22,832 nt of DNA from a bacterium (GCA_037137535.1 JBAXKC010000039.1:1-22832), one strand, 5' to 3'; positions 1,594 through 22,772 are shown, counted from the first letter of the stretch. Numbers and translations are program-made. Notes: generated from the letters alone by a model not told the origin.

Positions 1594-1944
1594 TCAATCT
1601 AACTTAGAAAATACTTGTTTTAATTCGTTAGATTTATCCTTTTGATTATCGCTTCTTTTTATAAGTAATTTTGTTAAATACTTTAGAGCTTTATGCCCAT
1701 CTTCATAATTATCCAAAGTGAAGATAGTCTTAATCGCAACTGATTTAGCATCTTCGTTGAAATTAATTTGTTGAAGCATAAATTGATCGCCCTCAGTTGC
1801 TTCAACAATATGCTTCATCCAATCAGATCTGCGTTCTGGTGATCCACCAATAAATTCAGGTTGTTCTGCAATATTTGCTGATAATACCCCCAACTCCTTA
1901 GTCGGAAGCCTTCCAAAAGATATATTTTTTATTCCAATATTCAT
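1594..1944 (-). CDS. Hypothetical protein with N-terminal KNISFG motif
   Basis: 116-aa ORF with SD AAGGAG (1958-1953) 8 nt before the ATG. No family recognised. Confidence 0.75.
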   Translation of the reverse strand: MNIGIKNISFGRLPTKELGVLSANIAEQPEFIGGSPERRSDWMKHIVEATEGDQFMLQQINFNEDAKSVAIKTIFTLDNYEDGHKALKYLTKLLIKRSDNQKDKSNELKQVFSKLD

Positions 1945-1978
1945 TTATATTTCTCCTTTTTAAATTATATTAAATAAC

Positions 1979-2293
1979 TTACTCCAAAACCCCATTCAAA
2001 ATCTCGACCAAATCGTCAACATTCCCTTTTATATAAAGGATTTTATTTTTATTCTTCTCACCTGAAACAATTTTTATAGATGATTTTGAAACCTTAAAAA
2101 CTTTTGATAGAAATTTAATGCATTTTTCATTGGCTTTTCCCTCAACGGGAGGAACGTCAAGCTTAACTCTTAAACTGTTTTCGATAAGTCCTGATATTTC
2201 GCATTTTGAGGAATTCGGCGTTACCCTCACGCTGATCTTTATGCCGTCATCATATATGTTTGCATTAATTTGAGTATTTTTAATTATTTTCAT
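1979..2293 (-). CDS. yggU: DUF167/YggU family protein
   Basis: Motifs VRVTPNS, PPVEGKAN, I+SGEK.K.K; typical size of about 100 aa. Confidence 0.9.
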   Translation of the reverse strand: MKIIKNTQINANIYDDGIKISVRVTPNSSKCEISGLIENSLRVKLDVPPVEGKANEKCIKFLSKVFKVSKSSIKIVSGEKNKNKILYIKGNVDDLVEILNGVLE

Positions 2294-2360
2294 TCTAGCT
2301 TTTATTCTAAATAAGCGGTAAAATAAGTATCTATGAGAATATTATACAAAAGAAAGAATT

Positions 2361-4520
2361 ATGGAAAGCGCAACATTATTTGATCAACTTGATTCTATAT
2401 TAAAAGAACAAAAAAGACCTGATGAAGATATTCAAAAAATCAAGTCAGCTTATGAGTTTGCCGCAAGACTACATCAAGGGCAATACAGAGTAAGTGAAGA
2501 GCCTTATATTGTCCATCCTGTAGAAGTTTCATGCATATTAGCAAATTTAGAAGCTGATACCGATACTATAATTGCTTCACTTTTACATGATATTTTAGAA
2601 GACACCGACACAAAGCCTGAAGAGATAGAAAAATTATACGGAAAAGATGTAATTACGCTTGTAAACGGTGTAACCAAATTAAGCAAATACAGCTTTAGCT
2701 CAAAAGAAGAAAGACAAGCTGAAAATTTCCGTAAAATGTTTTTAGCAATGGCGGAAGATGTCAGAGTTATCTTATTAAAACTCGCTGACAGACTTCATAA
2801 TATGAGAACCTTAAACTATATGGCTCCTCATAAACAGAAAAAGATTGCAGAAGAAACTTTAGAGATTTTTGCACCTTTAGCTAACCGCTTAGGTATGAAC
2901 AGAATAAAAATCGAGCTTGAAGATTTGTCTTTAAGATATATAAATCCTGAAAAATACTTTGAAATAGCTCAACTTGTTTCTCAAAGCAAAGCAGAACGAG
3001 ATCAAACTGTTCAAGCTATTGTAAACAGAGTTCAAACAAGCCTTAAAAGTTTGAATATTAACGCTATTATTACAGGAAGAGCAAAAAACTTTTACAGCAT
3101 ATACTCTAAAATGCAAAGAAAACAAAAGTCTTATCATGACTTATACGACATAAATGCAATAAGAATTATTGTTGATAACGAAAAAGAATGTTATGAAGTT
3201 CTTGGTGTAATTCACTCTGCCTTTAAACCAATACCCGGTAGATTTAAAGATTATATTGCAATGCCGAAAAGCAATTTATACAGATCACTTCATACCTCAG
3301 TAATTGGTCCTAGAGGGAAACCTGTTGAAGTTCAGATAAGAACCAGAGATATGCACGAAATCGCTGAATACGGGGTTGCGGCTCACTGGAAATATAAAGA
3401 AGCAGGAATGCCGACAACAGTAAACTCAAGCGATGAAAATAAATTTTCATGGCTCAGAAAGTTAGTTGAATTTCAAAACGATATCAAAGATGCGAAAGAG
3501 TACGTTGATAGCGTAAAGTTAGACTTATTCGGAGATCAGGTTTTTGTATTTACTCCGCAGGGTGAGGTTCTTGACCTTCCTAACGGTGCAACTCCTATTG
3601 ATTTTGCCTACCGTATTCATAGTGAAATCGGGCATAAATGCAGCGGAGCTTTGATTAACGGAAGAATTGTACCATTAGACACAAAACTTAGAAATGGCGA
3701 TATTATTGAAATTCTTACGAATAAGAACTCAAAGCCAAGACTTGACTGGATAAATATTGTTGCAACAAGCCAGACAAGAAGTAAAATTCGTCATTGGTTC
3801 AAGAAAAATCTGAAAGAAGACAATGGCAAAAAAGGTCATACCGCTTTAGAACAAGAGCTGGGCAAATCTGCGTTTGAGGACTATTTTAAAGCAGGAAAAC
3901 TTACCGAAATTGCAAAACAGCTTAACTATCAAAATGAACACGATATGTTTTGCGCAATAGGTCATGGAGAATTAACGCTTAATAAAGTAGTTAATCGATT
4001 AAAAGCCATTGATACAATTCCAAAAATAAAAACCTATAAACCGACAAGCACGACTAAAAACAGCAAAGTAATTGAAGGTCTTGAAGGTATGCTTTACCAC
4101 ATATCTAAATGTTGTACTCCTGTTCCGGGCGAGCCGATTATAGGAGTAATAACAAGAAGTCGTGGAGTAAGCGTTCACAGAGAAGATTGTAAAAACTTAG
4201 CCCTAGCCGATAATGAACGAATGATGCTCATTAATTGGTCAGGAGTTGATACAAGTAAGACTTTTGTTACTTATATTCAAGTTGAAGTAATAGACAGGCT
4301 TGGAGTGCTTAAAGACATTCTTACAAAAATTGCCGATAATAAAACTAACATTAACCATGCAAATATAAAAAATATCAGCAAATCAAGAGCAATTGTAGAA
4401 ATTGGGCTTGAAATTAAAGATATTGAACATTTAAACAAAATAACCAACAGCATATTAAGCATAAGCGATGTTTTATCAGTTAAACGACAAAAACCCGGTG
4501 CAGGTGTTAACTCTAAATAA
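2361..4520 (+). CDS. rel: Bifunctional (p)ppGpp synthetase/hydrolase (long RSH)
   Basis: HD motif LLHDILEDT, KLADRLHNMRT, synthetase RFKDYIA..PK.N.Y.SLHT, TGS (TPIDFAYRIHS), ZFD (KCCTP..HREDC) and C-terminal ACT domain. Confidence 0.97.
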   Translation: MESATLFDQLDSILKEQKRPDEDIQKIKSAYEFAARLHQGQYRVSEEPYIVHPVEVSCILANLEADTDTIIASLLHDILEDTDTKPEEIEKLYGKDVITLVNGVTKLSKYSFSSKEERQAENFRKMFLAMAEDVRVILLKLADRLHNMRTLNYMAPHKQKKIAEETLEIFAPLANRLGMNRIKIELEDLSLRYINPEKYFEIAQLVSQSKAERDQTVQAIVNRVQTSLKSLNINAIITGRAKNFYSIYSKMQRKQKSYHDLYDINAIRIIVDNEKECYEVLGVIHSAFKPIPGRFKDYIAMPKSNLYRSLHTSVIGPRGKPVEVQIRTRDMHEIAEYGVAAHWKYKEAGMPTTVNSSDENKFSWLRKLVEFQNDIKDAKEYVDSVKLDLFGDQVFVFTPQGEVLDLPNGATPIDFAYRIHSEIGHKCSGALINGRIVPLDTKLRNGDIIEILTNKNSKPRLDWINIVATSQTRSKIRHWFKKNLKEDNGKKGHTALEQELGKSAFEDYFKAGKLTEIAKQLNYQNEHDMFCAIGHGELTLNKVVNRLKAIDTIPKIKTYKPTSTTKNSKVIEGLEGMLYHISKCCTPVPGEPIIGVITRSRGVSVHREDCKNLALADNERMMLINWSGVDTSKTFVTYIQVEVIDRLGVLKDILTKIADNKTNINHANIKNISKSRAIVEIGLEIKDIEHLNKITNSILSISDVLSVKRQKPGAGVNSK

Positions 4521-4637
4521 TATTCCACTTTTGTACTAGGTTATAAAATAATATTAAGAATATAGAGAATAAAAACAAACTCTCAAACTGTTAAAATGAT
4601 TAAGAAATAAAATCAAAACAGAGGGAGTTTGTTTTTT

Positions 4638-4958
4638 ATGAGCAGTTTTTATGAAAATGTGTCTAAAAATGCATATTATAACTATCTAAACAGAATACAA
4701 AACAATTTACCTGTTAATAGTTTTGATGATTGGATATCAGCAGAAAAAAATCAGATAATTATAGAAAGAATAAAAGAAGAAGCATTCCTTCATTCAAAAG
4801 TATATGGTGAAGATGACCTTATTAATTGGATAACAGCTGAAAAAGAAATAAATGAAAGACTTAGATTTTTAGCGTACTATTTGCACGAATCAAATATTAA
4901 TAAATCAGCTGTGGATAATTGGAAAGAAGCAGAAAAAGTTTATATTGAACAATTTTAA
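4638..4958 (+). CDS. Protein with three tandem DUF2934-like repeats
   Basis: Three units of A[YF]...[DN]W..AEK. SD GAGGGAG (4621-4627) fits ATG 4638 better than TTG 4629. Confidence 0.7.
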   Translation: MSSFYENVSKNAYYNYLNRIQNNLPVNSFDDWISAEKNQIIIERIKEEAFLHSKVYGEDDLINWITAEKEINERLRFLAYYLHESNINKSAVDNWKEAEKVYIEQF

Positions 4959-4973
4959 CAGGGAGAAAAGTAT

Positions 4974-5309
4974 ATGTATGAAGGTATGATAGTATTTCAG
5001 TTAATTGGTTTATCAATTGCAGTTTTTCTATTAATTCATTCAATGAAACAAATAGGGCTAATCAAAGTAATTTCTGTCAGTTTCAGCATATTTATAATAC
5101 TGGCTACATTTTTATTAATGATCTTTACTTTAATACGAGCACACAAGTACAGAGGAATGATGTATCCACCAAATCCACAAATAATGAAAAAACATTGCGG
5201 TGGTTATCAATCTTTTGTACCGCCTACAACAGTAAGAGAAGTAATACTTTTAAAAATCCCTAACAATAAACAAGGTTGTCCAGATATAAAAATAAGTAAT
5301 TTTAAATAA
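4974..5309 (+). CDS. Hypothetical membrane protein (2 TM segments)
   Basis: SD GGGAG upstream, two hydrophobic segments, followed by a terminator. Confidence 0.7.
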   Translation: MYEGMIVFQLIGLSIAVFLLIHSMKQIGLIKVISVSFSIFIILATFLLMIFTLIRAHKYRGMMYPPNPQIMKKHCGGYQSFVPPTTVREVILLKIPNNKQGCPDIKISNFK

Positions 5310-5330
5310 ACTGTTAAATATATTTTGCAA

Positions 5331-5371
5331 ATCCTGATAGCTTATAAATAAAAGCTATCAGGATACTTTTT
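5331..5371 (+). terminator. Intrinsic terminator
   Basis: ATCCTGATAGCTT / AAGCTATCAGGAT 13-bp stem followed by ACTTTTT. Confidence 0.75.
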
Positions 5372-5482
5372 ATAATCATGTTACAAATTTAATACAAAAG
5401 AACAAAATGACTATTAATCTTTTATTTGTTCTGACTTTATATAAAGCAAGTGGAGTCATACAATTAAAGAGTGGGGGTTATA

Positions 5483-6427
5483 ATGTTAACTATAAATTCT
5501 CAAGTAATGAGAACGAGCTTAAACACAGTCAAACAAAGTTGCAACAAAGAAAACAAAACTCAATCAGCACCAAGCAACGACAAACATCAGAACTCAAGTA
5601 TTGCTGCTTATTCCAAAAATTATTATGTAGGATTTAACGGATTATTTGACAGAAAACCTCATCTTAATCACAATAATCTGATTAAGCATTTAGACGAAAA
5701 GCTAACACCTGACGAGATGAGAGTAATTAACAGAGCAGAAGTAAAGCATACTTTGGATAAATTATGTCAACATCCGGACAATCTCATTGCTAAAACAGAC
5801 GGATTTTACTATATGAAAGATAACACAATTGACCTTTTCACAAAAAAACCTGATGAAAATACAATGTTATCACAAGGAGTAACAGACTTTGTTTCTGCAC
5901 TTACAGGGCCAAAAGTAAATTTAGTGGAAACAATTAAAGCTACTCAAGAATATTTTAAAAACTTTTCATCAGAAAATCCTGACACAGAAGAAGGAATAAG
6001 AGCAGGTAAAATCCAAGAATTATTAAAGGTAAAACACGAAGGCTTAACCAGCTGGGATCCACCTGAAATAGTTGCTCAAAAAAAAGCTAAAGCAAATGAA
6101 ATAAAGTTACTCCGCTCGCTAAGTAATGATGACAAGCAACACCTAACTGAACTTGCAGACAAATTAGACGAAAAAATTGCAGGAAAAACGGATAAAACAG
6201 AAGCCTTATACTTAGTAAGCAAGCATTTTGAAAATAAAGCAAAAAATAACACCGAAAATGAAAAAGTAGCAGCAAGAAGTTTGTTTGCCTCAAAATTATT
6301 TACTGAAAAAGCTAAGCAAGCAGAAGAAGAACTAGCTTGGGGTGATGACGAAGAAGGTGAATCAGCAATTGATATTTGTTCAAAAGAGTTAAAAACAGAC
6401 TTAAAAGCAAATAAAAATGAAGATTAA
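5483..6427 (+). CDS. Hypothetical charged helical protein with low-complexity N-terminus ending KNYYVGFNG
   Basis: Long ORF. ATG 5483 follows GGGGG (5473-5477); the ORF track start is GTG 5471. No family recognised. Confidence 0.75.
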   Translation: MLTINSQVMRTSLNTVKQSCNKENKTQSAPSNDKHQNSSIAAYSKNYYVGFNGLFDRKPHLNHNNLIKHLDEKLTPDEMRVINRAEVKHTLDKLCQHPDNLIAKTDGFYYMKDNTIDLFTKKPDENTMLSQGVTDFVSALTGPKVNLVETIKATQEYFKNFSSENPDTEEGIRAGKIQELLKVKHEGLTSWDPPEIVAQKKAKANEIKLLRSLSNDDKQHLTELADKLDEKIAGKTDKTEALYLVSKHFENKAKNNTENEKVAARSLFASKLFTEKAKQAEEELAWGDDEEGESAIDICSKELKTDLKANKNED

Positions 6428-6451
6428 TTTGATACTTACAAGTTAATAAAC

Positions 6452-6483
6452 AAAAAATTAAACCCTCCAATGGAGGGTTTAAT
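6452..6483. terminator. Terminator hairpin between convergent genes
   Basis: ATTAAACCCTCCA / TGGAGGGTTTAAT inverted repeat with a T-tract on the minus strand. Confidence 0.8.
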
Positions 6484-6500
6484 AGCATCTAAGGTTTTAA

Positions 6501-7580
6501 TTATTCAGCTTCTTGATCCGAGGAATCTAAAGCGATCTTGTCATGAATTTCATTTAATTTTTTATTTTTTGACAAGTGGGACAACACTAACATTATAAAT
6601 AATATTACAATAACAAGAGCTAAATAAGACTTTTGACCGCCAACAAAGGTTGTTGCAATTGTACCTGCTGCAATACATAAAATATAAAGTACAAAAACAG
6701 TCTTATTATGGGAAAAACCGGCTTTTAACAATTTATGATGAATATGCTCCGAATCTGCAACGAAAGGATTAGCTCCTTTAGATAATCTTCTTAAAACAGA
6801 AAAGGAAATGTCTAAAATCGGTACAGCTAAAATCATTACAGGTAATAACATAGTAACTGCAACAGTTTTTAATACACCTGTTACAGCAAGTGCCGCAAGT
6901 GTAAAACCTGCAAACAATGCTCCTGAATCGCCCATAAATATTTTAGCTGGATTAAAGTTAAACAATAAAAAGCCCATCATAGAACCTGCGAGAATAGCCG
7001 CAACCAATGCACTTATCGGCTGATGAGTATGAACAGCAACAACACCAAGTGTTACGGCACTTATAGCGGTAATACCGCCCGCTAATCCATCAACACCATC
7101 AATGAAATTCATTGCATTACTAATGCCTACAAGCCAGAAAATTGTTAAAGGAATACTCAAAAGACCTAAAGAAAAACCACCGCCAAAATGACTTAAAAAA
7201 TCAATATTAACACCCAATAAACAGGCAACCAAAGCCGCTCCGATTTGAATAACAAGTTTAAACTTCGGTGTGAGATTATAAAGATCGTCAACCATACCAA
7301 GAAGAAACATAATGCTTCCACCGACAAGTATTCCTGATAAACCGTTACCATAAGGATAATTACGATTTAACAAAACCAATATAGCAAAAGTCAGAATCGT
7401 GCATAACCATATCGCAACACCGCCAAGTCTTGGTATTGGAGTTTTATGGACTTTTCTATCGTTAGGAATATCAACAAAACCCTTTTTAAGACAGTAAAAT
7501 CTAACTAAAGGTACGATAATTACCGCTAATATAAAGGAAATTCCAAATCCCCATATATGAAAATTTAAATTTGTAAAAAT
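6501..7580 (-). CDS. WecA/TagO-like undecaprenyl-phosphate GlcNAc-1-phosphate transferase (glycosyltransferase family 4), probable ATT start, 359 aa
   Basis: Motifs GMVDD, NAMNFIDGVDGL, FNFNPAKIFMGDSG and HIHH. The frame stays open upstream of 7379 and encodes the conserved DIPNDRKVHKTPIPRLGG. GGAGG (7593-7589) lies 8 nt before ATT 7580. Confidence 0.88.
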   Translation of the reverse strand: MFTNLNFHIWGFGISFILAVIIVPLVRFYCLKKGFVDIPNDRKVHKTPIPRLGGVAIWLCTILTFAILVLLNRNYPYGNGLSGILVGGSIMFLLGMVDDLYNLTPKFKLVIQIGAALVACLLGVNIDFLSHFGGGFSLGLLSIPLTIFWLVGISNAMNFIDGVDGLAGGITAISAVTLGVVAVHTHQPISALVAAILAGSMMGFLLFNFNPAKIFMGDSGALFAGFTLAALAVTGVLKTVAVTMLLPVMILAVPILDISFSVLRRLSKGANPFVADSEHIHHKLLKAGFSHNKTVFVLYILCIAAGTIATTFVGGQKSYLALVIVILFIMLVLSHLSKNKKLNEIHDKIALDSSDQEAE

Positions 7581-7612
7581 AAGTTTGTCCTCCGGATTAT
7601 TTAATACTTATT

Positions 7613-8872
7613 TTAAACCATTTCTGGATAAAGAGGATATTTTTTACATAATTGAATTGATCTTTCTTTTAATTCAGAAAGTTTTTCCTCATTATCAATA
7701 TTTTTAATTGCTTCGGCAATTATTTCACCAACAATTTCAAAATCAGCTGTTTTAAAGCCTCTTGAAGTTGCGGCAGGAGTTCCTAATCTTACACCACTTG
7801 TAACAAATGGCCCTTTAGGATCATCAGGAACAGTATTTTTATTAGCTGTAATGTGAACTCTTTCAAGTAAATCAGCTATTTCTCTACCTGTTCTGTCAAA
7901 TTTTCTTACATCAATAGTCAACATGTGATTATCGGTTCCACCGCTGACTAAGTCAATACCATTAGCATTTAGCGATTTTGCAAGAGCTTTAGCGTTATCA
8001 ATAACATCTTGTGAATATTGCTTGAATTCAGGTTTAAGAGCTTCTCCAAAAGAAACAGCTTTTGCAGCAATAACATGCTCCAAAGGTCCGCCTTGAATAC
8101 CTGGGAAAACAGCTTTATCAATTCCAGCGGCATGTTCAGCGTTGCACATAACCATTCCGCCTCTTGGACCTCTTAAAGTCTTATGAGTAGTTGTTGTAAT
8201 AAAATCAGCATAACCTACAGGTGACGGATGATGCCCTGTTGCAACAAGACCTGCAATATGAGCAATATCAGCCATTAATAAAGCACCGACTTTATCAGCA
8301 ACTTCTTTAAATCTTTTAAAATCAATAGTTCTAGGGTAAGCACTTGCTCCACAAATAATTAATTTTGGTTTATGCTCAATAGCAATTTTTTCAAGTTCGT
8401 CATAATCAATATAACCATTGCTGTCAGTTTTATAAGCAGCAAAATCGAAATAAAGTCCTGAGAAATTAGCAGGTGAACCATGGGTTAAATGACCACCATT
8501 AGATAAATCCATTCCTAAAACTTTATCACCCGGTTTAAGCGCATATAACATAACTGCCATATTAGCCTGAGCGCCGCTATGTGGCTGAACATTCGCATGC
8601 TCTACGCCAAAAAGCTGTTTTGCTCTTTCAACTGCCAATGATTCAACTTTATCTACAACTTCACAACCGTTATAAAATCTTTTATGAGGTTTGCCTTCCG
8701 CATATTTATTAGTTAAAACAGTACCCATAGCCGCAATTACAGCTGAGCTGGTAAAGTTTTCGCTTGCGATTAACTCTATTGTATTTCTTTGTCTGTCTAA
8801 TTCTTCAGAGATTAAGTCAGCGATTTGAGGATCAACACTTCTTATTAAATCAAGTTCCATTTCATCCACCAT
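7613..8872 (-). CDS. glyA: Serine hydroxymethyltransferase
   Basis: LIASENF, NKYAEG, NVQPHSG, GGHLTHG and PLP-lysine [13 protein letters not shown]. Alternative start at ATG 8860. Confidence 0.98.
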
Positions 8873-9069
8873 TTCTAAAAACTATAGCTACAATTTATTG
8901 TATTAATTGTAGCAAAAAAACAATTATAGTTAATAATATAACACTTCATATAGTTATATTAATATTTGTAAAACAATTTAAGTATTACAATCATGAAACT
9001 AATAGACAAGGTTTTTATTATTATATAATCAAAAAAACTTGTTACTATTAATAGACTCGGAGGAAAATA

Positions 9070-9411
9070 ATGGTAGATTTAAATACCTCAAAAAATATGG
9101 TTTCATTTGGAGAAACGAATACAAATCTCAAAAAAGCTTATACCCAAGAGGGAACAGGCATTAAAAATGCTCTTATTGTAGGAGGCTCTCTTATAGCGAG
9201 TGTATGTGGTGCCCATGTTGCAAATAATTATATTCCCGTTTCTGATAAATATGTTAAAGTTATTAATGAAGGGAAAAATCTTCTTGGAGAAGAGGCTATA
9301 AAAATGGCTAAGTCTCAGAGAGGTCCACTTGCAATAGGAATAGGACTAGCAGTTGGTGCTTTAGCATCATTTTTCGGCACAAAAATGCTGTCAGATAAAA
9401 AAGAAGTTTAA
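9070..9411 (+). CDS. Small protein with N-terminal KNMVSFG motif and two Gly/Ala-rich hydrophobic segments
   Basis: SD GGAGG, own terminator, segments ALIVGGSLIASVCGA and LAIGIGLAVGALASFFG. Confidence 0.8.
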   Translation: MVDLNTSKNMVSFGETNTNLKKAYTQEGTGIKNALIVGGSLIASVCGAHVANNYIPVSDKYVKVINEGKNLLGEEAIKMAKSQRGPLAIGIGLAVGALASFFGTKMLSDKKEV

Positions 9412-9424
9412 AAAAGGTTTAAAA

Positions 9425-9462
9425 TAAAAAGCAGCTGATAAAAGATTATCAGCTGCTTTTTA
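9425..9462. terminator. Bidirectional intrinsic terminator
   Basis: TAAAAAGCAGCTGATAA-AAGA-TTATCAGCTGCTTTTTA between convergent genes. Confidence 0.88.
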
Positions 9463-9484
9463 GTAAATATTATATAATGTTAAA

Positions 9485-9922: not shown

Positions 9923-9948
9923 TATAAACCCTTTCTATGTAAACAGCT

Positions 9949-14068: not shown

Positions 14069-14084
14069 TTTCTTAAGAAATACT

Positions 14085-14180: not shown

Positions 14181-15173
14181 ATGCAAGATTGCGGTAAGTT
14201 AAGCATAAAAATTATAAAAGAATCATTTCTGGAATTTAAAAATATTTTTGAGACCTTTAGACTTCAATCAATGGTTGATTATAAATTTGAAACCCCTCCA
14301 TTAAGTTTTGAAGATGCTGCAACATTAATTGAAAATGAAACACTAAAAGGCTATGTTTTATATGAAGATGAAAAACCAGCCGGATTTTTACTTTATTTTG
14401 TATCCGATCTTCAAGCTATAGAAGTAAACATAATTCATATTGAAGGTAAAAATTTTATAAATAAAAAAAGAAAAGAATTATTAGCTAGACTAGTTGAAGA
14501 TGTAAAAGGACAAGATTTCTGGAACGTTATAAGCTATCCGCTTCTAGGCATACAACAATCCTTTATGAGGGAAATTGTTCAGGTAGGCTTTAAAATGGTG
14601 GGACAAACAATAGTAAAATTCCCTTTTGATAGTCCTTTATCTGATAAAATACGAAAAAAAGTTAATTTAGCAGATTTACCTGAAGATTATGAATTAACAG
14701 AGTGGAAGCCTGAATATTTTGAACAAGCCTGCGATGTAATATTTGAATCTTTTAGTAAGGCAAAAGACACCTTATTCGATCCAAGATTTTTAACCTTAGA
14801 AGGGACTCGTGATGTTCTAACTAAAATTACAACTGAAGAATATGGTGTTTTCCTAGACAAGGTTACCAGTGTATTATTATATAAAGGTAATGTTGTAGGA
14901 ATTTGTTTTACAAATTTAACAAATCCTCTAATTATGAATATTCCTCTTGTAGGAATTAAAGATACTTATAAAAATAAAGGATTTGGGAAATATCTGCTAA
15001 AACAGACAACAGACAAAGCAGTAAATAAAATTAAAGAAGAACAAGTAAAAATATTTGAACTAAACGCAACAGTAGAAACTGATAATTTCCCCGCATTAAG
15101 AATGTATAGAAAAATTGGTTATGTAGAAGATCATTCATATCCTCATGCATATTTAAGCAATTCTTGTTCTTAA
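14181..15173 (+). CDS. GNAT-family N-acetyltransferase (probably tandem GNAT domains)
   Basis: Acetyl-CoA motif A-like VGIKDTYKNKGFGKYLL and C-terminal NFPALRMYRKIGY. Confidence 0.8.
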   Translation: MQDCGKLSIKIIKESFLEFKNIFETFRLQSMVDYKFETPPLSFEDAATLIENETLKGYVLYEDEKPAGFLLYFVSDLQAIEVNIIHIEGKNFINKKRKELLARLVEDVKGQDFWNVISYPLLGIQQSFMREIVQVGFKMVGQTIVKFPFDSPLSDKIRKKVNLADLPEDYELTEWKPEYFEQACDVIFESFSKAKDTLFDPRFLTLEGTRDVLTKITTEEYGVFLDKVTSVLLYKGNVVGICFTNLTNPLIMNIPLVGIKDTYKNKGFGKYLLKQTTDKAVNKIKEEQVKIFELNATVETDNFPALRMYRKIGYVEDHSYPHAYLSNSCS

Positions 15174-15253
15174 TAAAAAGTATAACTAAAATATTTAAGC
15201 AATATTGAAAATTAAATTGTTTTTATATAGCTATAAGCAATATAGAGGAATAC

Positions 15254-15466
15254 CTGATTAATTTAAGAAATGTTGTTTATAATATAGCAAAAAAAACTAC
15301 TACACCTGTTGTTCTTGGTTTATGTTGCCTCACAACTCACCCTCAATTAAGTACTGTACCAAAACTAGTTGCAAAACTTATTGAAGATAAAGAGCTTATA
15401 GCCTCTATTGAAAAATTTGTAGAAAAATCTTCAAAAAATAACGATATATTTACTAAACTCAAATAA
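15254..15466 (+). CDS. Putative 69-70 aa small protein with non-canonical start (CTG 15254 or ATT 15257), absent from the ORF track
   Basis: Open frame (M)INLRNVVYNIAKKTTTPVVLGLCCLTTHPQ...NDIFTKLK*, SD GAGGA at 15245-15249, terminator directly downstream. Confidence 0.5.
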   Translation: MINLRNVVYNIAKKTTTPVVLGLCCLTTHPQLSTVPKLVAKLIEDKELIASIEKFVEKSSKNNDIFTKLK

Positions 15467-15490
15467 AAGACAAAAACATAATAAAATTAG

Positions 15491-15514
15491 AAAGCGCCTT
15501 CAAGGGCGTTTTTT
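15491..15514 (+). terminator. Intrinsic terminator
   Basis: AAAGCGCCT-TCAA-GGGCGTTT followed by a T-tract. Confidence 0.8.
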
Positions 15515-15659
15515 AGCAAAATATTTTTAAAAACAATGTATAATGTTGCCATAATAAGAATCTAAAGAATTGATAATTGAAAATAGGTCTACTTATCAAT
15601 GTACACTAACCTTATTTAAAATAAACTTATAGTGTTACTGTAAACTTTGAAGAGTAATA

Positions 15660-17534
15660 ATGAACAAAAAATTATTTAAAAGAATAGGAATGATTGCTTT
15701 AATTATTTTGATAATTCTATTATTGATTAAAGCCTGTGTTAATGCAGATATTGAGGAAAAGTCATTTAATAATACTGAAAAGGAAAATGCTCTTTCAGTA
15801 ACAAAGCAGCGTTCCCCCGGAAATTTTAAAACGGTGGAAATAAACGGAGTAGAATATAAACAGGCAAGAGGCGAAGTCGGTCAATTTGGAGGAACGCTTG
15901 TTTCTTCATCAATAGGAGAAGGACCTAAAACCTTTAATCCATGGGTATCAAAAGATGCTACTTCAGGCGAAATGAGCGATTTAATGTTTGACGGATTGGT
16001 TAATACTGATGCTTATACAGGTGAAGTAAATCCACAATTAGCAAAAGAAATAAAAGTCGATAAATCGGGCAAAGTTTATACAATAAAACTCAGAAAAGGT
16101 TTAACATGGTCTGATGGCAAGTCTATAACGGCTGATGACGTATTATTTACATATAATACTATTATAGCCAAAGGCTTTGGTAATGCCAGCATGAGAGATA
16201 ACATACTCGTTAATAATCAAATGCCTTCGCTAAAAAAAATTGATGATTTAACTGTAGAATTTACCACACCAAGTACATTTGCACCTTTTTTAAGACAATT
16301 AAGCATTCCAATTGCACCAAAACATATTCTTGAAGCTGTAACGAATCAAGGAGAAAAGGAATTTAACTTATTCTGGGGAGTTTCTACAAATCCTAAAGAT
16401 TTTGTAACCAGCGGTATGTTCAGATTATCAAAGTACATTCCCGCTCAAAGAGTTGAGTTTGTAAGAAATACTAATTATTATTTTATTGATAAAAAAGGAA
16501 GACAACTTCCATATTTAAGCAAATATATTATTCAAATTGTTGGAGATATAAATAATCAGGTACTTAAATTTGAAGGGAAAGAGCTGGATTTTTTAGGTAT
16601 AAACGGCTCGATGGTATCAAAATTCAAAGCATTTGAAAAACATTCCGATTATAAAATATATAATCTTGGCCCTGATTTAGGAACTACATTTTTTACGTTA
16701 AATTTAAATAAACGAAAAAATGATGCAGGAGAATACTATGTAAATCCAATTAAGCAAAAATGGTTTAACGATTTAAACTTCAGAACAGCTGTTGATTACA
16801 CAATAGACAGAGAAAGCATTGTTTCAAATGTATTATCTGGAGTAGGTGCGCCTTTATTTACAGCTGAAGCTTTATCTTCAATATATTTAAACCAAAAAAT
16901 TAAAAATGGACATCCTAGAGATATCAACTATGCTAAAAATCTTTTGAGAAAATCAGGATTTACTTGGGATAAAAACGGACTATTACATGATAAAGACGGT
17001 AATCAAGTTGAATTTAATCTTCTTACAAATGCAGGCAATACAGAACGTGAAGCTGTTGGCGTAATGGTTAAAGAAGACCTTGAAGAATTGGGGATAAAAG
17101 TTAATTTTAAACCGATTGAATTTAATGTTCTGGTCGGTAAACTTAATGATACGCTAGACTGGGAGGGCATAATAATTGGGCTGACAGGAAGTCCGTTAGA
17201 GCCTCATAACGGCAAAAACGTTTGGTACAGCACAGGAAGTTTACATTTATTTAATCAACGCAAAGGCAAAGAACTTGAAACAAAAGCCGATCTTCGCCCA
17301 TGGGAAGCGCAACTTGATACAATGTTCGATAAAGGCGCAAGCGCATTAGCTTTTAATGAAAGAAAAAAATATTACGATCAATATCAGGACATTGTTTATA
17401 AAGAAAAACCAATGATTTATTTATACTCACCGCTGAGAATATCTGCCATAAGAAAGAAATATAAAAATATTCGACCTACAATAATAGGCGGAATGTTGCA
17501 TAATTTGGAAGAAATCTATATTAAGGAAAAATAA
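15660..17534 (+). CDS. ABC transporter substrate-binding protein, family 5 (OppA/DppA/NikA-like)
   Basis: PKTFNP, LRKGLTWSDGKSITADDVLFT, FRTAVDYTIDR, N-terminal hydrophobic anchor ending LIKAC. Confidence 0.92.
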   Translation: MNKKLFKRIGMIALIILIILLLIKACVNADIEEKSFNNTEKENALSVTKQRSPGNFKTVEINGVEYKQARGEVGQFGGTLVSSSIGEGPKTFNPWVSKDATSGEMSDLMFDGLVNTDAYTGEVNPQLAKEIKVDKSGKVYTIKLRKGLTWSDGKSITADDVLFTYNTIIAKGFGNASMRDNILVNNQMPSLKKIDDLTVEFTTPSTFAPFLRQLSIPIAPKHILEAVTNQGEKEFNLFWGVSTNPKDFVTSGMFRLSKYIPAQRVEFVRNTNYYFIDKKGRQLPYLSKYIIQIVGDINNQVLKFEGKELDFLGINGSMVSKFKAFEKHSDYKIYNLGPDLGTTFFTLNLNKRKNDAGEYYVNPIKQKWFNDLNFRTAVDYTIDRESIVSNVLSGVGAPLFTAEALSSIYLNQKIKNGHPRDINYAKNLLRKSGFTWDKNGLLHDKDGNQVEFNLLTNAGNTEREAVGVMVKEDLEELGIKVNFKPIEFNVLVGKLNDTLDWEGIIIGLTGSPLEPHNGKNVWYSTGSLHLFNQRKGKELETKADLRPWEAQLDTMFDKGASALAFNERKKYYDQYQDIVYKEKPMIYLYSPLRISAIRKKYKNIRPTIIGGMLHNLEEIYIKEK

Positions 17535-17538
17535 AAAC

Positions 17539-18507
17539 ATGTCTATTTACGTTTATATTTTAAAAAGAATAATGCAAGCTATACCATTATTGATTTTAAT
17601 ATCAATAATAAGTTTCCTTATTATTAGATTAAGTCCTGTTGACCCTTTAGCAGAGCTAAAACTAAACCCTGCAATATCACAGCAGACTTTAAAAGCTGAA
17701 AAAGAACGATTAGGTTTAGATAAACCAATGCTAGTGCAATATTTCAAATGGGCAGATTCAGCTTTAAAAGGTGATTTAGGGGTATCGACCTCGGGAGAAA
17801 AAGTTTCAGATAAATTAATACAAAGAATTCCAAATACATTATTACTTACGACAATCACAATTGTTGTAACTTGGCTTATAGCAATACCATTAGGTATTAT
17901 AGCCTCGTTAAAGTGGAAATCGGCTTTTGACAGAATAACAACAATTTTATCCGCCATCGGTATGGCGATACCGACTTTTTTCTTTTCACTTTTAATGCTC
18001 ATATTTGCTGTAAAAACAGGCTGGTTTCCTGTTGGTGGATTAACAAGCATTGGTTTTGAAAAATTCAGTTTAATTGGCAAAATTTTAGATATAGGACATC
18101 ATTTATTTCTACCTGTTCTTGTTCTTTCAACAGCAAGTGTAGCAGGATTACAAAGACAAATGAGAGGTAATTTACTGGATATACTTGAATCTGACTATAT
18201 AAAAATGGCTAGAGCCAAAGGCTTACCTGAAAATATTGTAATATACAAACATGCCGTCAGAAATGCGATAAATCCACTCGTAACGCTGTTAGGATTTGAG
18301 TTTTCGTCATTATTAAGCGGAGCAGCCCTTACTGAATATGTATTTCAATATCCAGGGCTAGGTAGACTTATTTTAGAAGCTGTTATAAAGCTTGATATAA
18401 ATCTGGTAATGGCGTCATTGATGATGGGGGCTATAATGCTTGTAATCGGTAATTTGATTGCTGATATTCTCCTAAAAATCGTTGATCCTAGAATAACATT
18501 GGGGTAA
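17539..18507 (+). CDS. Peptide/nickel ABC permease (OppB-like)
   Basis: GLDKP..QY..W, EAA-like DYIKMARAKGL, HAVRNA, PGLGRL, DPRI. Confidence 0.93.
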   Translation: MSIYVYILKRIMQAIPLLILISIISFLIIRLSPVDPLAELKLNPAISQQTLKAEKERLGLDKPMLVQYFKWADSALKGDLGVSTSGEKVSDKLIQRIPNTLLLTTITIVVTWLIAIPLGIIASLKWKSAFDRITTILSAIGMAIPTFFFSLLMLIFAVKTGWFPVGGLTSIGFEKFSLIGKILDIGHHLFLPVLVLSTASVAGLQRQMRGNLLDILESDYIKMARAKGLPENIVIYKHAVRNAINPLVTLLGFEFSSLLSGAALTEYVFQYPGLGRLILEAVIKLDINLVMASLMMGAIMLVIGNLIADILLKIVDPRITLG

Positions 18508-18509
18508 TT

Positions 18510-19598
18510 ATGGAAAGCAATATAACATTTAAAGAAAAATCTCTTCTACAGAAATTGCTTAAAGACAAATTTTCGTTGATAGGAATTATTGTATTAGCAA
18601 TATTATACCTATCAATAACTTTTGCCGGTTTTCTTGCCCCGTATAAAGAAGATTTTAGCGATAGAAGGCTTTCATACGCACCTCCATCAAAAGTTTTTAT
18701 TATAGATAAGCATGGGCGATTATCTTTTCCCTATACTTATAATTATAAAAGAACTTTTGACCCTAATACTTTTACGATGACTTACAAATTAGACAGAAGT
18801 AAAAAACATTATTTAAAATTTTTTACAACAGGCTATAACTACAAAATTTTAGGAATTTTACCTTTAAATCTTCATTTTGTAGAAGTAGGAAAAGAAGGAC
18901 GTTTATTTTTACTTGGAACTGATATTAATGGAAGAGACGTTTTTTCAAGATTGCTTTATGGCGGACAAATCTCTCTTACTATTGGCTTTCTTGCTTTATT
19001 TATTTCTTTTCCGATAGGAATGATTTATGGAGGAATTGCAGGATTTTTCGGTGGTAAAGTAGATGATATTATGATGCGTATAGCCGAAGGACTTATGAGT
19101 ATTCCGAGTTTTTATCTACTTATAAGTCTTGCAGCGATTTTACCAGCTAATATGACATCAGCACAACGATTTGGATTAATAACAGTAATACTTTCCTTTA
19201 TAGGCTGGGCTGGATTAAGCAGAGTTGTCAGAGGTATGGTTTTATCCATAAAAACGCAAGAATTTGTTGAATCCGCCAAAGCAATAGGAGCAAGCTCTTT
19301 CCGTATTATTACAAAACATATTCTTCCGCAAACTGCCAGTTACGTTATAGTTGCCATAACTCTAAGTGTTCCTGGTTATATTCTTGCCGAATCAGGTTTA
19401 AGCTTTTTAGGGCTGGGTATTCAACAACCCGATGCAAGTTGGGGAAATATGCTTAAAGAAGCCCAAGAATTTGTTAATGTAATGGATAGACCATGGTTAT
19501 TAGTTCCCGGATTATTGATATTTATTGCAGTGCTTGCTTTTAACTTAATTGGTGATGCTGTTAGAGACTTTTTAGACCCTAAAAGCAGAATGAGATAG
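18510..19598 (+). CDS. Peptide/nickel ABC permease (OppC-like)
   Basis: LGTDINGRDVFSRLLYG, EFVESAKAIGA, LSFLGLG..P..SWG, GDAVRDFLDPK. Confidence 0.93.
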   Translation: MESNITFKEKSLLQKLLKDKFSLIGIIVLAILYLSITFAGFLAPYKEDFSDRRLSYAPPSKVFIIDKHGRLSFPYTYNYKRTFDPNTFTMTYKLDRSKKHYLKFFTTGYNYKILGILPLNLHFVEVGKEGRLFLLGTDINGRDVFSRLLYGGQISLTIGFLALFISFPIGMIYGGIAGFFGGKVDDIMMRIAEGLMSIPSFYLLISLAAILPANMTSAQRFGLITVILSFIGWAGLSRVVRGMVLSIKTQEFVESAKAIGASSFRIITKHILPQTASYVIVAITLSVPGYILAESGLSFLGLGIQQPDASWGNMLKEAQEFVNVMDRPWLLVPGLLIFIAVLAFNLIGDAVRDFLDPKSRMR

Positions 19599-19691
19599 TT
19601 TTTTTAGTCTATAAATTAAAATGAATTATATTTAATACTGTTTATACGATATAATTATAGCTGTTATAAATAGTTAATTAGATGTATAAAT

Positions 19692-20399
19692 ATGAATGTA
19701 ATGATAGCCTTTTTCCATAGTGAAACCTTTATCAGATTGCTTTTTGCAATGGCATTTGGTTTTATAATCGGCATTGAAAGAGAATTAACAAATAAATCTG
19801 CGGGATTACGTACTCATATATTAGTTTGTATGGGTTCAGCAGTTTATACTTTATTATCCATTCAAGGATTTGTATCAGGCGATCATATTACTAGAGATCC
19901 TGCTCGAATAGCTGCTCAAATAGTAACAGGCATTGGATTTATCGGTGGTGGTGTGGTTCTAAGACATGGAGTCTCAATTTATGGGCTTACAACCGCTGCC
20001 TCTTTATGGATTACTGCAAGCATAGGTATGGCGGCAGGAGCAGGAAAGTATGATATTGCCTTTGCAAGCAGTTTGCTCTCCTTTCTCGTACTTGTTCTTA
20101 TGAGATCTTTAGAAAGAGGCATTTTATCAAAATTTACATTGAAATCTATTCGAGTAGAAATAAACGTTTTATGTACAACAGATACCTGTGAACTCGTTCA
20201 AAGTTGGTTTAATGATGAATTCAAAGATATTTTTGAATATAAATTAAATAAAATAGGCAAAGAAAACAATGAATCGATGAGTCAACTCAGATATATTATA
20301 GATATTTATGATAGAGATCCTCTTAATAAAACCTACAAAAAACTTAAAGGTCTTGATAACATAGAAGAAATTACGATAAAACAAGTAATAGGCGAATAA
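19692..20399 (+). CDS. MgtC/SapB family membrane protein
   Basis: IGIERE, AGLRTH, DPARIAAQIVTGIGFIGGG, GLTTAASLW, C-terminal ACT-like domain. Confidence 0.92.
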   Translation: MNVMIAFFHSETFIRLLFAMAFGFIIGIERELTNKSAGLRTHILVCMGSAVYTLLSIQGFVSGDHITRDPARIAAQIVTGIGFIGGGVVLRHGVSIYGLTTAASLWITASIGMAAGAGKYDIAFASSLLSFLVLVLMRSLERGILSKFTLKSIRVEINVLCTTDTCELVQSWFNDEFKDIFEYKLNKIGKENNESMSQLRYIIDIYDRDPLNKTYKKLKGLDNIEEITIKQVIGE

Positions 20400-20407
20400 T
20401 ATAATTT

Positions 20408-21424
20408 ATGTATTTGAATCTGCGAGAATTATTTAACGAATATAAATATATTTTGCTTGTAATTTTCTTAATGATTATTGTCAGCATAATAATGGTTTTA
20501 GATATTAAAACACCTGATGATATGACTACAAGGTTATCAATAGGTAAAAGTCTTATTGATAAAAATGAACTGGTTAAAGCATTAGATCTTTATTCAAAAT
20601 TTGTAAGAGATTATCCCCGAAACTATTTTGGGCATATTTCATTAGGTGATATATATCTAAAAACAGGAAATATAGAAAACGCAAAAATTGAATACCTAAG
20701 GGCAATGGAATTAAGTGATAATCGCAGATTTGACGGATATTTCAAACTCTCCAAAATTTATATCGATAATGAAGATTATGATGCTGCCTTTAAAGTAATT
20801 GAGCCTCTTAATAAGAATGAAAAAGAAGAAGTTCTTGTGAATTATGGGGATTTATACTTTTACTGGGGGAAAAAATATCGTTATACCTCTCCTGAAGAAT
20901 CCATAAGAAAATATAAAAAAGGTTTAGAATACTATAAAAATTCTGGGAATGAAGAAAAAATAAAAGAGGGACAAAATACAATTGCAGAAACTTATTCAAA
21001 TATGGCGGAAAATCTGGTAAATGCGGGTAATACTGATGAAGCAGAAGAACTTTTAAATATATCGTTAAAACAATTTGAAAATCCATTGGCTTATGTTGAA
21101 CTGGGAAGAATTTATAGACAAAAAGATATAGATGCAGCTGTTAAATATTATGATATGGCCTATAAAATAGACCCAAAGTCAATTTCTACTGATGAATATA
21201 CAAGTGTACTAGTAGCAAAAGCAGCTTCTTTAGATGAACAAGGCATGCCTGAAGCTGCAAGTATATACATGGACAAAGCTGATAAACTTCTAAAACAAGA
21301 ACGTAAACATAAAGAAGAAATGGATAAAAAAGCACATAAAATCAATAAAAGTTTTGGTAAATTTGATACCTCAAAGATAGAAAATAATAGTCATAAAGAA
21401 AAAATCATTCATGAAAATAAGTGA
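20408..21424 (+). CDS. TPR-repeat protein with single N-terminal TM anchor
   Basis: Repeats such as HISLGDIYLKTGNIENAKIEY and AYVELGRIY..DIDAAVKYYDMAYKIDP. Confidence 0.85.
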   Translation: MYLNLRELFNEYKYILLVIFLMIIVSIIMVLDIKTPDDMTTRLSIGKSLIDKNELVKALDLYSKFVRDYPRNYFGHISLGDIYLKTGNIENAKIEYLRAMELSDNRRFDGYFKLSKIYIDNEDYDAAFKVIEPLNKNEKEEVLVNYGDLYFYWGKKYRYTSPEESIRKYKKGLEYYKNSGNEEKIKEGQNTIAETYSNMAENLVNAGNTDEAEELLNISLKQFENPLAYVELGRIYRQKDIDAAVKYYDMAYKIDPKSISTDEYTSVLVAKAASLDEQGMPEAASIYMDKADKLLKQERKHKEEMDKKAHKINKSFGKFDTSKIENNSHKEKIIHENK

Positions 21425-21482
21425 TAAAATTTCACTCTAAACTTAATTTAAAATAATTTCAGAAAAGTTTCTCAATATTAGT

Positions 21483-21512
21483 TTGACTATGGTATAAAAG
21501 CAACTTTATATT
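21483..21512 (+). promoter_or_regulatory. Putative sigma70-type promoter
   Basis: TTGACT-N18-TATATT upstream of the 21564 gene. Confidence 0.35.
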
Positions 21513-21563
21513 TATTTAGTTTTTATTACTTTAAATGTGCTTTATTAAAGTAGGAATAAACTT

Positions 21564-22772
21564 ATGCAACTAGTTATAAAGACAACAAATAATGTTCAAA
21601 CTATACAAAAATCAAACAAAAACATTTCAACAACATATACTTCTTTTAAAGGTGATGATTACGAAAATAAAACAGTTAAACTCAGTAGTAAACAAATGAA
21701 AGAGTTACTACTTGAAGATAATAAAGAAAACTTATTAAATAATTTAATCAAAAGAGCAGAAATTAATTATAAAGAAGCAATAAATTTAACTGATGACACC
21801 TATGACAAAGACAGACGGAAACTATTATATAAAGCTCACAAAGATTGTGACTTAGCACTTAATGTTTATGATAAATACATAGATGGAACTATAGAGACAC
21901 TTGATCATAAAAAGCAAGAAGAACTATGTAACAAAGACAATGATATCTTTCTATTAGACAAAAAGATATTAAAAGAACTTTTTAAAATAAATATGTCACC
22001 TGAAGCATTAAAACAAACTAATGAATATGAAAACTATAATCAATCAAGGTGTAATACTGACGATTGGCTAACGCTCTATAAAGAAAAATTTGTTGATGGT
22101 TTTACTTTCGGAATTCATAATTATGATGAAAATGCCTGCCCAACCGGAGCTTCATCGATTAAATATCAAACAGCAATAATCATTGATGCAACAAAAGATA
22201 AAATATTAAATAATGCTATTAATTATATTGGCGAACAATTTACCAAAGTTGAAAATATGCCAAATACCAAAAAAGAAAAAGATCTATTAAAAATGGAAAG
22301 TGTGCTTGAGCTTATGCACAATAATTTTCCTTATGAAGAAATTATTGTTTCAAAAGATGGACACGAGCGAAAAATTAATATTTTTTCAAAAAGAAAGCAC
22401 CAACCCTCAAGACCCTTTTATATAGGAAATTTAATTTCTGATAATCCTGAAATAGGAATAAAACGAGGAGCAGGTGTATGCGCAGAACAAGCTAAACTTT
22501 GCAAAGTGCTTGTTGAACGTAATGCAATAACAGCAAACCTTGTTCAATCACCTTTTCACGCCTGGCTAGAAGTAAATTCTGACGGAGATAAATATGTTCT
22601 TGACCCTGCTAATAGACTTTTAATTGATCTTGAAGAAGAAAAGATTTATAGATATAAACCGAGAGATAGAAAATTAATCGACATTACAAACGATAGAGAA
22701 ATGGTTAATCAATTTGCTAATTTACATAAGAAAAAAAATGGAAAAAATGTTTATCCTCAAATTTTCAATTAA
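21564..22772 (+). CDS. Transglutaminase-like/EDR1-like cysteine-protease-fold protein with N-terminal TSFKG motif
   Basis: GAGVC(306)AEQAKLCKVL, H(332)AWLEV and YVLD(347)P form the Cys-His-Asp triad pattern. Confidence 0.75.
   Translation: MQLVIKTTNNVQTIQKSNKNISTTYTSFKGDDYENKTVKLSSKQMKELLLEDNKENLLNNLIKRAEINYKEAINLTDDTYDKDRRKLLYKAHKDCDLALNVYDKYIDGTIETLDHKKQEELCNKDNDIFLLDKKILKELFKINMSPEALKQTNEYENYNQSRCNTDDWLTLYKEKFVDGFTFGIHNYDENACPTGASSIKYQTAIIIDATKDKILNNAINYIGEQFTKVENMPNTKKEKDLLKMESVLELMHNNFPYEEIIVSKDGHERKINIFSKRKHQPSRPFYIGNLISDNPEIGIKRGAGVCAEQAKLCKVLVERNAITANLVQSPFHAWLEVNSDGDKYVLDPANRLLIDLEEEKIYRYKPRDRKLIDITNDREMVNQFANLHKKKNGKNVYPQIFN

Follow-up and report, generated by a model that had tools for sequence, protein, structure and literature searches.

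Four otherwise unrelated genes on a 22,832-nt contig of a bacterial genome (JBAXKC010000039.1; the whole contig is called the window here) appeared to begin with a similar short, polar leader ending in a Phe-containing motif, and the question raised by this locus is whether the leader is a genuine N-terminal tag and, if so, what reads it. To our knowledge, type III secretion signals are notoriously free of a consensus, so that substrates are hard to predict and the recognition step is hard to study. We found that the leader is a lineage-restricted, translated, Phe-specific N-terminal tag carried by about 100 unrelated, mostly orphan proteins. As to its function, which we infer, the leader may sort proteins to a type III export apparatus that derives from the flagellum and has neither filament nor rotor; we favor this reading tentatively, with a confidence somewhat short of even. 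The original prediction, which had seen in the leader a genome-wide, type III-like tag on effector-like cargo, was partly supported.

The window is contig C39 of a genome (G000) of 2.95 Mb in 81 contigs, with 31% GC. Genes of G000 were called with a simple in-house program based on hexamers and Shine-Dalgarno (SD) sequences, which gave 2647 genes at a coding density of 86%; the calls are crude and the starts approximate. The N-termini named in the original prediction were present in the open reading frames (ORFs) of all four window genes:

9070..9411, plus strand: leader-bearing orphan of 113 aa; leader residues 1-14 (9070-9111), MVDLNTSKNMVSFG, then two hydrophobic segments.
21564..22772, plus strand: leader-bearing orphan of 402 aa; leader residues 1-30 (21564-21653), with TSFKG at its end.
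1594..1944, minus strand: marginal leader-bearing orphan of 116 aa; leader residues 1-11 (1912-1944), MNIGIKNISFG; AAGGAG 5' of the ATG.
5483..6427, plus strand: marginal leader-bearing orphan of 314 aa from the ATG at 5483; leader approximately residues 1-53 (5483-5641), with MLTINSQ at its start and YYVGFNG at its end.

Across the genome, the motif was more frequent at N-termini than expected from composition, and the excess held against shuffled sequences, internal controls, a held-out matrix and an untrained pattern. The untrained pattern [VIL][SA]F[KTSRQN][GA] occurred 84 times in the first 80 residues and 32 times in the remaining sequence, which is three times as much, corresponding to a 7.8-fold enrichment per residue. 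When 18,798 short tripeptide-type patterns were scanned blindly, VSF was the one most enriched at the N-terminus (75 vs 24 expected, p 7e-17). A looser leader test, asking for [VILTMAF][STG]F followed by.G or G within the first 85 residues and no hydrophobic stretch preceding it, was passed by 121 of the 2647 N-termini, compared with 51.3 +/- 7.2 (maximum 74) over 50 shuffles and, per 2647, with 86.5 internal-Met and 75 random-internal controls. With a Phe-anchored position-specific scoring matrix (PSSM) of 15 residues and a threshold of 7.31, the 99.5% quantile of internal windows, 111 N-termini were over threshold and 13 were expected, a circular figure, since the set scored was also the training set. 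In a two-fold held-out test, 86 of 2647 N-termini passed at the 0.99 quantile (26.5 expected) and 70 at the 0.995 quantile (13.2 expected). The class thus comprises roughly 80-110 proteins, or 3-4% of the proteins of the genome, and false positives of the PSSM include FlgE, FabH, MacB, an outer-membrane factor and an RTX protein. The mature parts of the 111 matches fall into 99 families, 93 of them singletons, which bears out the claim of a genome-wide, lineage-restricted tag on unrelated proteins. The highest PSSM scores belonged to five tandem, near-identical genes of 111-115 aa at C25:29127-30881, which start with MQLTT...VAFSGNIG.

Phe alone works at the center of the motif. When the center residue of the untrained pattern was swapped for others, the ratio was 0-1.8, with 2.9 for Tyr, 0.6 for Leu and 0 for Trp in the first 80 residues. 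The surrounding positions prefer Val over Ile and Leu at -2, Ser/Ala at -1, Lys/Arg/Ser/Thr/Asn/Gly at +1, Gly/Ala at +2 and Asn at +3. These preferences bear on the possibility that the motif is a processing or degradation signal, at which a lineage-specific endopeptidase would cut, for example before Phe so as to expose an N-degron for ClpS. The motif is short and sharp, its small residues at -1 and +2 recall many cleavage sites, and Phe followed by Lys or Arg, if exposed, would be a strong bacterial N-degron under the N-end rule. However, Leu and Trp would be equally good N-degrons and are not enriched at the center, and Tyr is enriched weakly, so we rejected the ClpS N-degron; in addition, a model with the protease Prp fails (see below) and no candidate protease was found. 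We consider processing at the motif improbable.

In the window itself, the leader proposed to be common to the four genes is clear in two and marginal in the other two. The gene at 9070-9411 scored 12.5 with the PSSM (rank 42 of 2647) and that at 21564-22772 scored 9.8 (rank 95). The genes at 1594-1944 (3.0, rank 254) and 5483-6427 (called as 5471/5483; 3.8, rank 206) were under the threshold and are therefore only look-alikes; the MLTIN opening of the latter is typical for the class. Among the four, 21564-22772 alone passed the held-out test at the 0.99 quantile. Each gene does have its own SD-like box, in line with what had been noted; besides the AAGGAG given above, the boxes are GGAGG 7 nt 5' of the ATG at 9070, TAGGA before 21564 and GGGGG before 5483, where GTGGGGG lies 5' of the ATG and a longer start at GTG 5471 was judged less likely. 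None of the four gave a Pfam match (0/4), and when 9070-9411, 1594-1944 and 21564-22772 were searched against 5.8 billion sequences, each matched only itself. Within the genome, 9070-9411 has a single paralogue, C21:49142, without the exact motif. The body of 21564-22772 forms a family of ten (itself and nine paralogues), and six members (itself and five paralogues) carry hydrophobic/polar-x-F-[KSG]-x at varying distance from Met, as judged by reading the N-termini by eye. This protein gave one weak match among 40 relatives and weak leads in a structure atlas to EDR1/transglutaminase-type papain-like folds (template-modeling score 0.33-0.44).

The leaders ahead of the motif are 1-87 residues long (median 25; at most 12 in 35 of 111) and mutually non-alignable, with the pentapeptide alone being kept and showing residue preferences at its five positions. 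They are rich in Asn (17.2 vs 7.2% in other N-termini), Gln (6.0 vs 3.3), Ser (9.1 vs 7.2) and Thr (7.6 vs 5.5) and poor in Asp+Glu (6.5 vs 11.0%), whereas Arg (2.7%) equals that of other N-termini, and their net charge is +2.2 vs +0.6. An M[LNIQKT][ILTN]N opening was seen in 17 of 111 leaders and in 62 of 2536 other proteins. A hydrophobic 15-mer (mean Kyte-Doolittle at least 1.8) ahead of the motif is absent in 108 of 111, and the remaining three look like false positives. The two statements made about the leader, that it lacks a Sec-type h-region and that it resembles a type III N-terminus in generic composition, both stood up; the consensus motif is what sets it apart from the generic type III signal. 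The module is a translated, disordered-type segment, rich in Asn/Gln/Ser/Thr/Lys, poor in acidic residues, net-positive and without a hydrophobic core, that ends in [VIL]-[SA]-F-[KRSTNG]-[GA].

The leaders are genuine translated sequence. Hexamer scoring gave 0.30 in frame, compared with -1.36 and -1.74 in the other frames, and the coding frame came out best for all of the 76 leaders scored. Of the 111 leader genes, 95 have an SD-like box before the start, as do 10.6% of random positions; an alternative ATG with SD 3' of the motif was found in 1 of the 111, and 37 leaders are open over at least 40 codons, where 0.039 would be expected by chance. Asn/Lys/Ile-rich peptides do arise readily from AT-rich DNA and the starts came from a simple caller, but these four measures, together with the shuffles and internal controls, make it extremely unlikely that the class is an artefact of composition or of over-extended gene starts.

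We compared the leader with known N-terminal signals. A Sec signal peptide was rejected, as the h-region of approximately 10-15 residues is missing in 108 of 111 leaders, and a Tat signal peptide likewise, given the missing h-region and an Arg content no different from elsewhere, although no explicit scan for twin arginines was made. Type IV prepilins carry G|F-[TS]-L-[ILV]-E, cut by PilD, and a hydrophobic helix; the leader motif prefers K/R/S/T/N/G, G/A and N after Phe, and 76 of 108 proteins have no transmembrane (TM) segment. True prepilin-like N-termini occur elsewhere in G000. The extension that Prp cleaves from L27, MLKLNLQFFA|SKKG, resembles the leader, but G000 has no PF04327 match (control genomes were positive) and its L27 starts MASKKG with no extension. 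A double-glycine leader for C39 peptidases, which has Gly-Gly/Ala/Ser at -2/-1 of the cut and hydrophobic residues at -4/-7, does not fit either: K/R/S/T/N stand before the final G/A, Gly being in the minority, and the cargo ranges up to more than 1000 aa.

The tagged proteins are mostly orphans, as had been claimed: a Pfam match at E<=1e-5 was obtained for 18 of 72 genes with the leader and/or the promoter described below (20 at 1e-3), compared with 53 of 75 random neighboring genes. Proteins with good leaders contained the following domains: cytidine deaminase, adenosine deaminase, DSP-type protein phosphatase, DHH/DHHA1, peptidase M15 and a Ski2-like helicase. The proposal that the cargo is effector-like agrees with the deaminases, the phosphatase, the DHH protein and the M15 peptidase, and it is at odds with cytoplasm-type members discussed further on. 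For several of the tagged enzymes there is a housekeeping paralogue without leader, of which the tagged protein is a longer second copy; these are GlgA-like, three nucleotidyl transferases, Cdd, Ada, DHH and the helicase. For example, C4:98089-100641 encodes an 850-aa glycogen synthase-like protein, its domain assigned on no more than visual inspection and a BLAST match to the paralogue, with a 62-residue leader whose ISFAG end lies just ahead of the first conserved strand, and C7:87937-89478 is an ordinary leaderless copy of 513 aa.

What, then, could read such a tag? G000 holds two flagellar-type export gene sets, A and B:

C3:62106-67096: set A, FliPQR-FlhB-FlhA (FlhA 879 bits).
C36:1706-8066: set A, FliG/FliH/FliI.
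C1:105888-109500: set A, FlgE/FlgD/FliK.
C13:60-10372: set B, FliI-FlhA (706 bits)-FliH-FliF-FliE, a lytic transglycosylase, FlgC, FlgB and two FlgF/G.
C7:21484-23859: set B, second FliP/R.
C21:47278-48351: set B, second FlhB.

The genome also has seven flagellin genes. FlhA was found in 121 of 121 genomes searched of the order, and most gut genera of family f3 keep the set-B type only. In three genomes with set-B FlhA alone, G163 (f3), G057 (f16) and G045 (f15), no flagellin, FliG or FlgD was found, whereas G000 and G041 have all three; set B is therefore taken to be a flagellum-derived apparatus without filament, hook cap and FliG. According to a 2026 preprint, the flagellar gene set is complete in approximately 25% of Gastranaerophilales genomes, and the others keep genes such as flhB, fliI and flgG, for which a role in secretion is "postulated" (10.64898/2026.04.24.720558).

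In addition to these sets, four ORFs of G000 resemble the C-terminal domain of FlhA (FlhA-C) without its membrane part:

C34:182-1675: membrane-less FlhA-C-like ORF, with a conserved N-domain followed by FlhA-C.
C60:3193-4599: membrane-less FlhA-C-like ORF.
C2:107687-109057: membrane-less FlhA-C-like ORF, with a hydrophobic stretch near its own N-terminus.
C27:25204-26991: membrane-less FlhA-C-like ORF, whose N-terminal part is common with a gene of unknown function between fliF and fliH in the C13 cluster.

The soluble paralogue on C34 has an orthologue in G163 that is 37% identical over the full length. Full-length matches to it were obtained in 39 of 39 f3 genomes, in G000 and in f11 (G041, with a partial match in G047); in other flagellar-type families the search returned only the C-domain of FlhA itself, and in f12 and f17 nothing.

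Other routes were considered as readers of the leader and rejected. A search of G000 for VirB4 found none, which speaks against type IV secretion, and a contractile injection system is not indicated as the sole sheath gene lies in a Mu-like prophage. This prophage, a Mu/P2-like myovirus at C35:49-21582, encodes sheath, tube, tape measure, baseplate, terminase, portal and two methyltransferase-like genes. Export by C39 peptidases was dismissed for misfit of the motif and because the two C39-like domains are weak (30-35 bits); both are in HlyB-type ABC genes, one adjoined by an outer-membrane-factor paralogue. These two ABC genes accompany the many RTX proteins. With VirB4 missing and the sheath gene borne by a prophage, the type III sets are the main non-Sec routes in G000 besides an RTX-type type I secretion system.

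The distribution of the leader was sampled in seven relatives. For six of them, a contiguous 400 kb was scored with the PSSM trained on G000 at the 0.995 quantile; for the other, 100 kb was scanned with the motif pattern. Matches in the six larger samples were as follows:

G163 (f3), 400 kb: 7, 1.8 expected; clear leaders by eye, e.g. MKIQNNNNLSFNG.
G057 (f16), 400 kb: 5, 1.8 expected; by eye not leader-like.
G045 (f15), 400 kb: 1, 1.8 expected.
G093 (f12, no FlhA), 400 kb: 0, 1.8 expected.
G055 (f18), 400 kb: 2, 1.6 expected; two or three plausible.
G044 (f14), 400 kb: 1, 1.8 expected; a Tpx false positive.

G163 is a gut relative from the same order as G000, 99% complete in one contig. Because it has leaders together with set-B FlhA only and no flagellin, FliG or FlgD, the leader persists where no flagellum can be built. 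From the distribution of the C34 paralogue, the leader was also predicted in f11, and the 100 kb of G041 gave four N-terminal matches to the motif pattern vs 0.3 expected, three of them plausible leaders; on this small sample, we tentatively count f11 among the leader-bearing lineages. A variant motif, FK.G, stood out in G045 (7 vs 0.5) and was discarded, as its matches turned out to lie in unrelated contexts that are not leaders.

Most leader genes appear to be monocistronic, since 79% of them (62% of other genes) are separated by at least 60 nt from the gene upstream, and they are enriched for one type of promoter. This two-box element consists of GCAATT(T/A)T and, after a fixed spacer that measures 14 nt in 46 of 61 sites, GTTTTTATA, and is located 55-95 nt 5' of the ATG. 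We count approximately 55-80 sites genome-wide, e.g. before C3:129351, C12:59205, C15:44882 and C15:46512, and 124 occurrences over both strands. By regular expression, it precedes 12 of 111 leader genes and 47 of 2536 others (p 3.5e-6), an enrichment of approximately 3-6-fold. The genes behind it are mostly other orphans with polar MG or MA starts, none with a hydrophobic N-terminus. One near-match lies in the window:

21500..21529, plus strand: promoter near-match, GCAACT, 13-nt spacer and GTTTTTATTAC, approximately 60 nt before the start at 21564; read by eye and unscored, with one mismatch and a spacer one base short.

In the sampled relatives, good copies of the element were present in G163, G055, G044 and G041, and none were found in the samples of G057, G045 and G093. 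A 228-aa FliA-like sigma factor is encoded right after the second flhB (C21:48383-49069); its orthologues are 59-67% identical in G163, G055 and G044, and the best matches in G057 and G045 reach only 34-38%. The distribution of this sigma factor equals that of the promoter, making it a candidate reader of the element. The canonical sigma-28 box, TAAA-N14-16-CCGATA, precedes 18 of 2647 genes, including a flagellin. A small Pfam-negative family starting with MGLAASQ.R.L.LT.RK.DLE (C9:24182, C15:44882, C15:46512 and C62:8061) is preceded by a canonical sigma-28 box at one copy and by the GCAATT element at the other three.

The promoter and the monocistronic arrangement would also suit a mobile promoter-plus-leader cassette that was spread by recombination and kept for expression, providing a promoter, an SD and an easily translated A-rich start, without any function of the leader as protein; the five tandem paralogues on C25, which share leader and body, could be seen in the same light. 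Most leader genes lack the promoter, however, and leaders that differ in length from 1 to 87 residues and do not align are hard to reconcile with a spreading cassette. Since the pentapeptide alone is kept, with preferences at each of its positions, selection at the protein level is indicated, and we hold the cassette to be very improbable.

We interpret the leader as a sorting tag, in which a flexible N-terminus would present a short linear motif for recognition. We rank sorting for type III export first because of the signal-like composition of the leader, the scarcity of other non-Sec routes, the persistence of the leader without a flagellum and its co-occurrence with the FlhA-C paralogue. 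The likeliest reader would be set B, kept beside or instead of a true flagellum and comprising FlhA, FlhB, FliPQR, FliI, FliH, FliF, FliE, rod proteins and the lytic transglycosylase. A hydrophobic pocket, either in a cytoplasmic component of the gate or in the soluble FlhA-C paralogue, may receive the invariant Phe, whereupon the cargo would leave the cell in unfolded form. The exported set would be effector-like, consisting of deaminases, phosphatases, peptidases, extra copies of glycogen enzymes and small membrane-inserting proteins. The most specific form of this proposal, that Gastranaerophilales-type Melainabacteria have a type III system without filament and rotor that exports about 100 effector-like proteins, papain-like enzymes included, by a consensus [VIL]-[SA]-F-x-[GA] read by the soluble FlhA-C paralogue, is in our judgment doubtful as a whole.

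Several observations weigh against type III export. The cargo includes enzymes of cytoplasmic type, i.e., glycogen synthase, nucleotidyl transferases and the Ski2-like helicase. A TM segment follows the motif in 32 of 108 proteins, the same share as in other proteins (29%), and does so behind a leader whose charge obeys the positive-inside rule. Leader genes do not lie near the export genes: two were within 5 kb of type III or FlhA-C-like genes vs 2.2 expected, and two within 10 kb vs 3.8 expected. The early-substrate signal of flagella, a gate-recognition motif plus a hydrophobic element, does not match and was set aside; the gate-recognition motif is reportedly F-x-x-x-hydrophobic, whereas position +4 of the leader motif prefers Q/K/H/N/I and its distance from the start varies from 1 to 87 residues. 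Co-regulation with late flagellar genes was rejected as well, with a sigma-28 box at 0 of 111 leader genes and approximately 0.75 expected, which is uninformative to mildly negative. The association with the GCAATT promoter is less clean when a position weight matrix is used in place of the regular expression (10 of 111 vs 70 of 2536, p 0.0016; at a stricter cut 4 vs 32, p 0.06), figures that are conservative because the null, taken from reverse-complement upstream regions, is contaminated by divergent promoters. Set B is insufficient for the leader, since G057 and G045, which have set B only, showed no convincing leader in their samples. The co-distribution of the leader with the FlhA-C paralogue is a lead, not proof, as the lineages are few and related (f1 and f3 belong to one order), and G055 has its plausible leaders yet no soluble FlhA-C paralogue.

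Part of this evidence would also be explained if the leader were a cytoplasmic docking tag, its Phe motif being bound by an intracellular hub, for example the soluble FlhA-C paralogue or a different scaffold, that gathers, sequesters or regulates enzymes and membrane proteins, which would stay in the cell. Such a hub would accommodate the cytoplasm-type enzymes, to which the deaminases and the DHH protein may be added, the TM segments after a net-positive leader suited to a cytoplasmic N-terminus, the scattered positions of the leader genes and the co-occurrence with a membrane-less FlhA-C protein. On the other hand, about 100 unrelated, fast-evolving orphans would be an unusual clientele for a scaffold, and the composition and the absent homologues are more typical of secreted or surface repertoires. 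We consider docking rather unlikely, though deserving of weight, and retain type III sorting as our tentative preference.

The neighbors of the four window genes are ordinary: RelA/SpoT, SHMT, RpiB, S12/S7/EF-G, a peptide ABC transporter and TPR proteins. Just upstream of the gene at 5483, two small leaderless orphans without Pfam match are encoded on the plus strand (4629-4958 and 4974-5309), the second with two hydrophobic segments in its product. At the contig end, an 88-aa remnant of a DDE transposase (48-314, plus strand; PF01609, E 2.5e-7) overlaps, on the opposite strand, the end of the gene for a TPR membrane protein (287-1525).

Literature searches on N-terminal signals, flagella and type III secretion in Melainabacteria/Gastranaerophilales found no description of the leader. 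If type III sorting is correct, a Phe-centered motif on approximately 3-4% of the proteome would offer a recognition code that can be tested directly, and it would be the first motif of defined sequence in a type III signal. It would supply a ready list of candidate substrates for a lineage of nearly unknown biology, whose gut members are common in non-industrialized human populations, and give a function to the partial flagellar gene sets of most Gastranaerophilales and to the soluble FlhA-C paralogue. It would also add one more case in which the export core of the flagellum was co-opted to secrete effectors. If the leader is instead a docking or processing signal, it would still represent an undescribed lineage-wide sorting code that accounts for the N-termini of about 100 proteins, mostly orphans.

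Chaperone-substrate complexes dock on FlhA-C by placing an aromatic residue in a hydrophobic dimple, as seen in structures such as PDB 6CH3. The leader likewise presents an invariant aromatic residue on a flexible segment, and a protein with the FlhA-C fold, the soluble paralogue, co-occurs with it. The known aromatic residue sits on the chaperone, whereas here it is on the substrate's own N-terminus and its binding is putative. For type III systems that have lost the flagellum, we know of no report of a consensus signal on the substrates. Such systems, reportedly proposed or shown to export other proteins, are those of Lysobacter enzymogenes OH11 (PMC7688988) and the basal bodies of Buchnera (PMC8109811). 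They resemble set B in that the export gate, the ATPase and basal parts are retained and flagellin is missing, and differ in that set B is also without FliG and FlgD and, in G000, exists beside a complete flagellar set.

Early flagellar substrates of rod and hook carry a gate-recognition motif that docks at FlhB-C, plus a hydrophobic extreme N-terminus, according to Bryant et al. (2022; PMC8983047). The leader would share with them an unfolded, uncleaved and chaperone-free N-terminus with a short Phe-containing motif after a short first element; many leaders open with M-L/I-I/T-N, and the matching machinery is present twice in G000. Unlike the known motif, which needs a set distance, the leader motif is [VIL]-[SA]-F-[polar]-[GA] after 1-87 residues, and its cargo is non-flagellar. 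As to the exported repertoire, the effectors of the Chlamydia type III system are reported to include secreted glycogen enzymes and Inc membrane proteins (PMC4829429, PMC3722199, PMC6717882). In Chlamydia the signals have no consensus and the machine is an injectisome, whereas the organism with the leader is free-living in freshwater with no host cell indicated. The two repertoires are nevertheless alike in comprising dozens of unrelated, lineage-specific proteins with N-terminal non-Sec signals, among them glycogen synthase-type enzymes and small proteins with hydrophobic segments soon after the signal.

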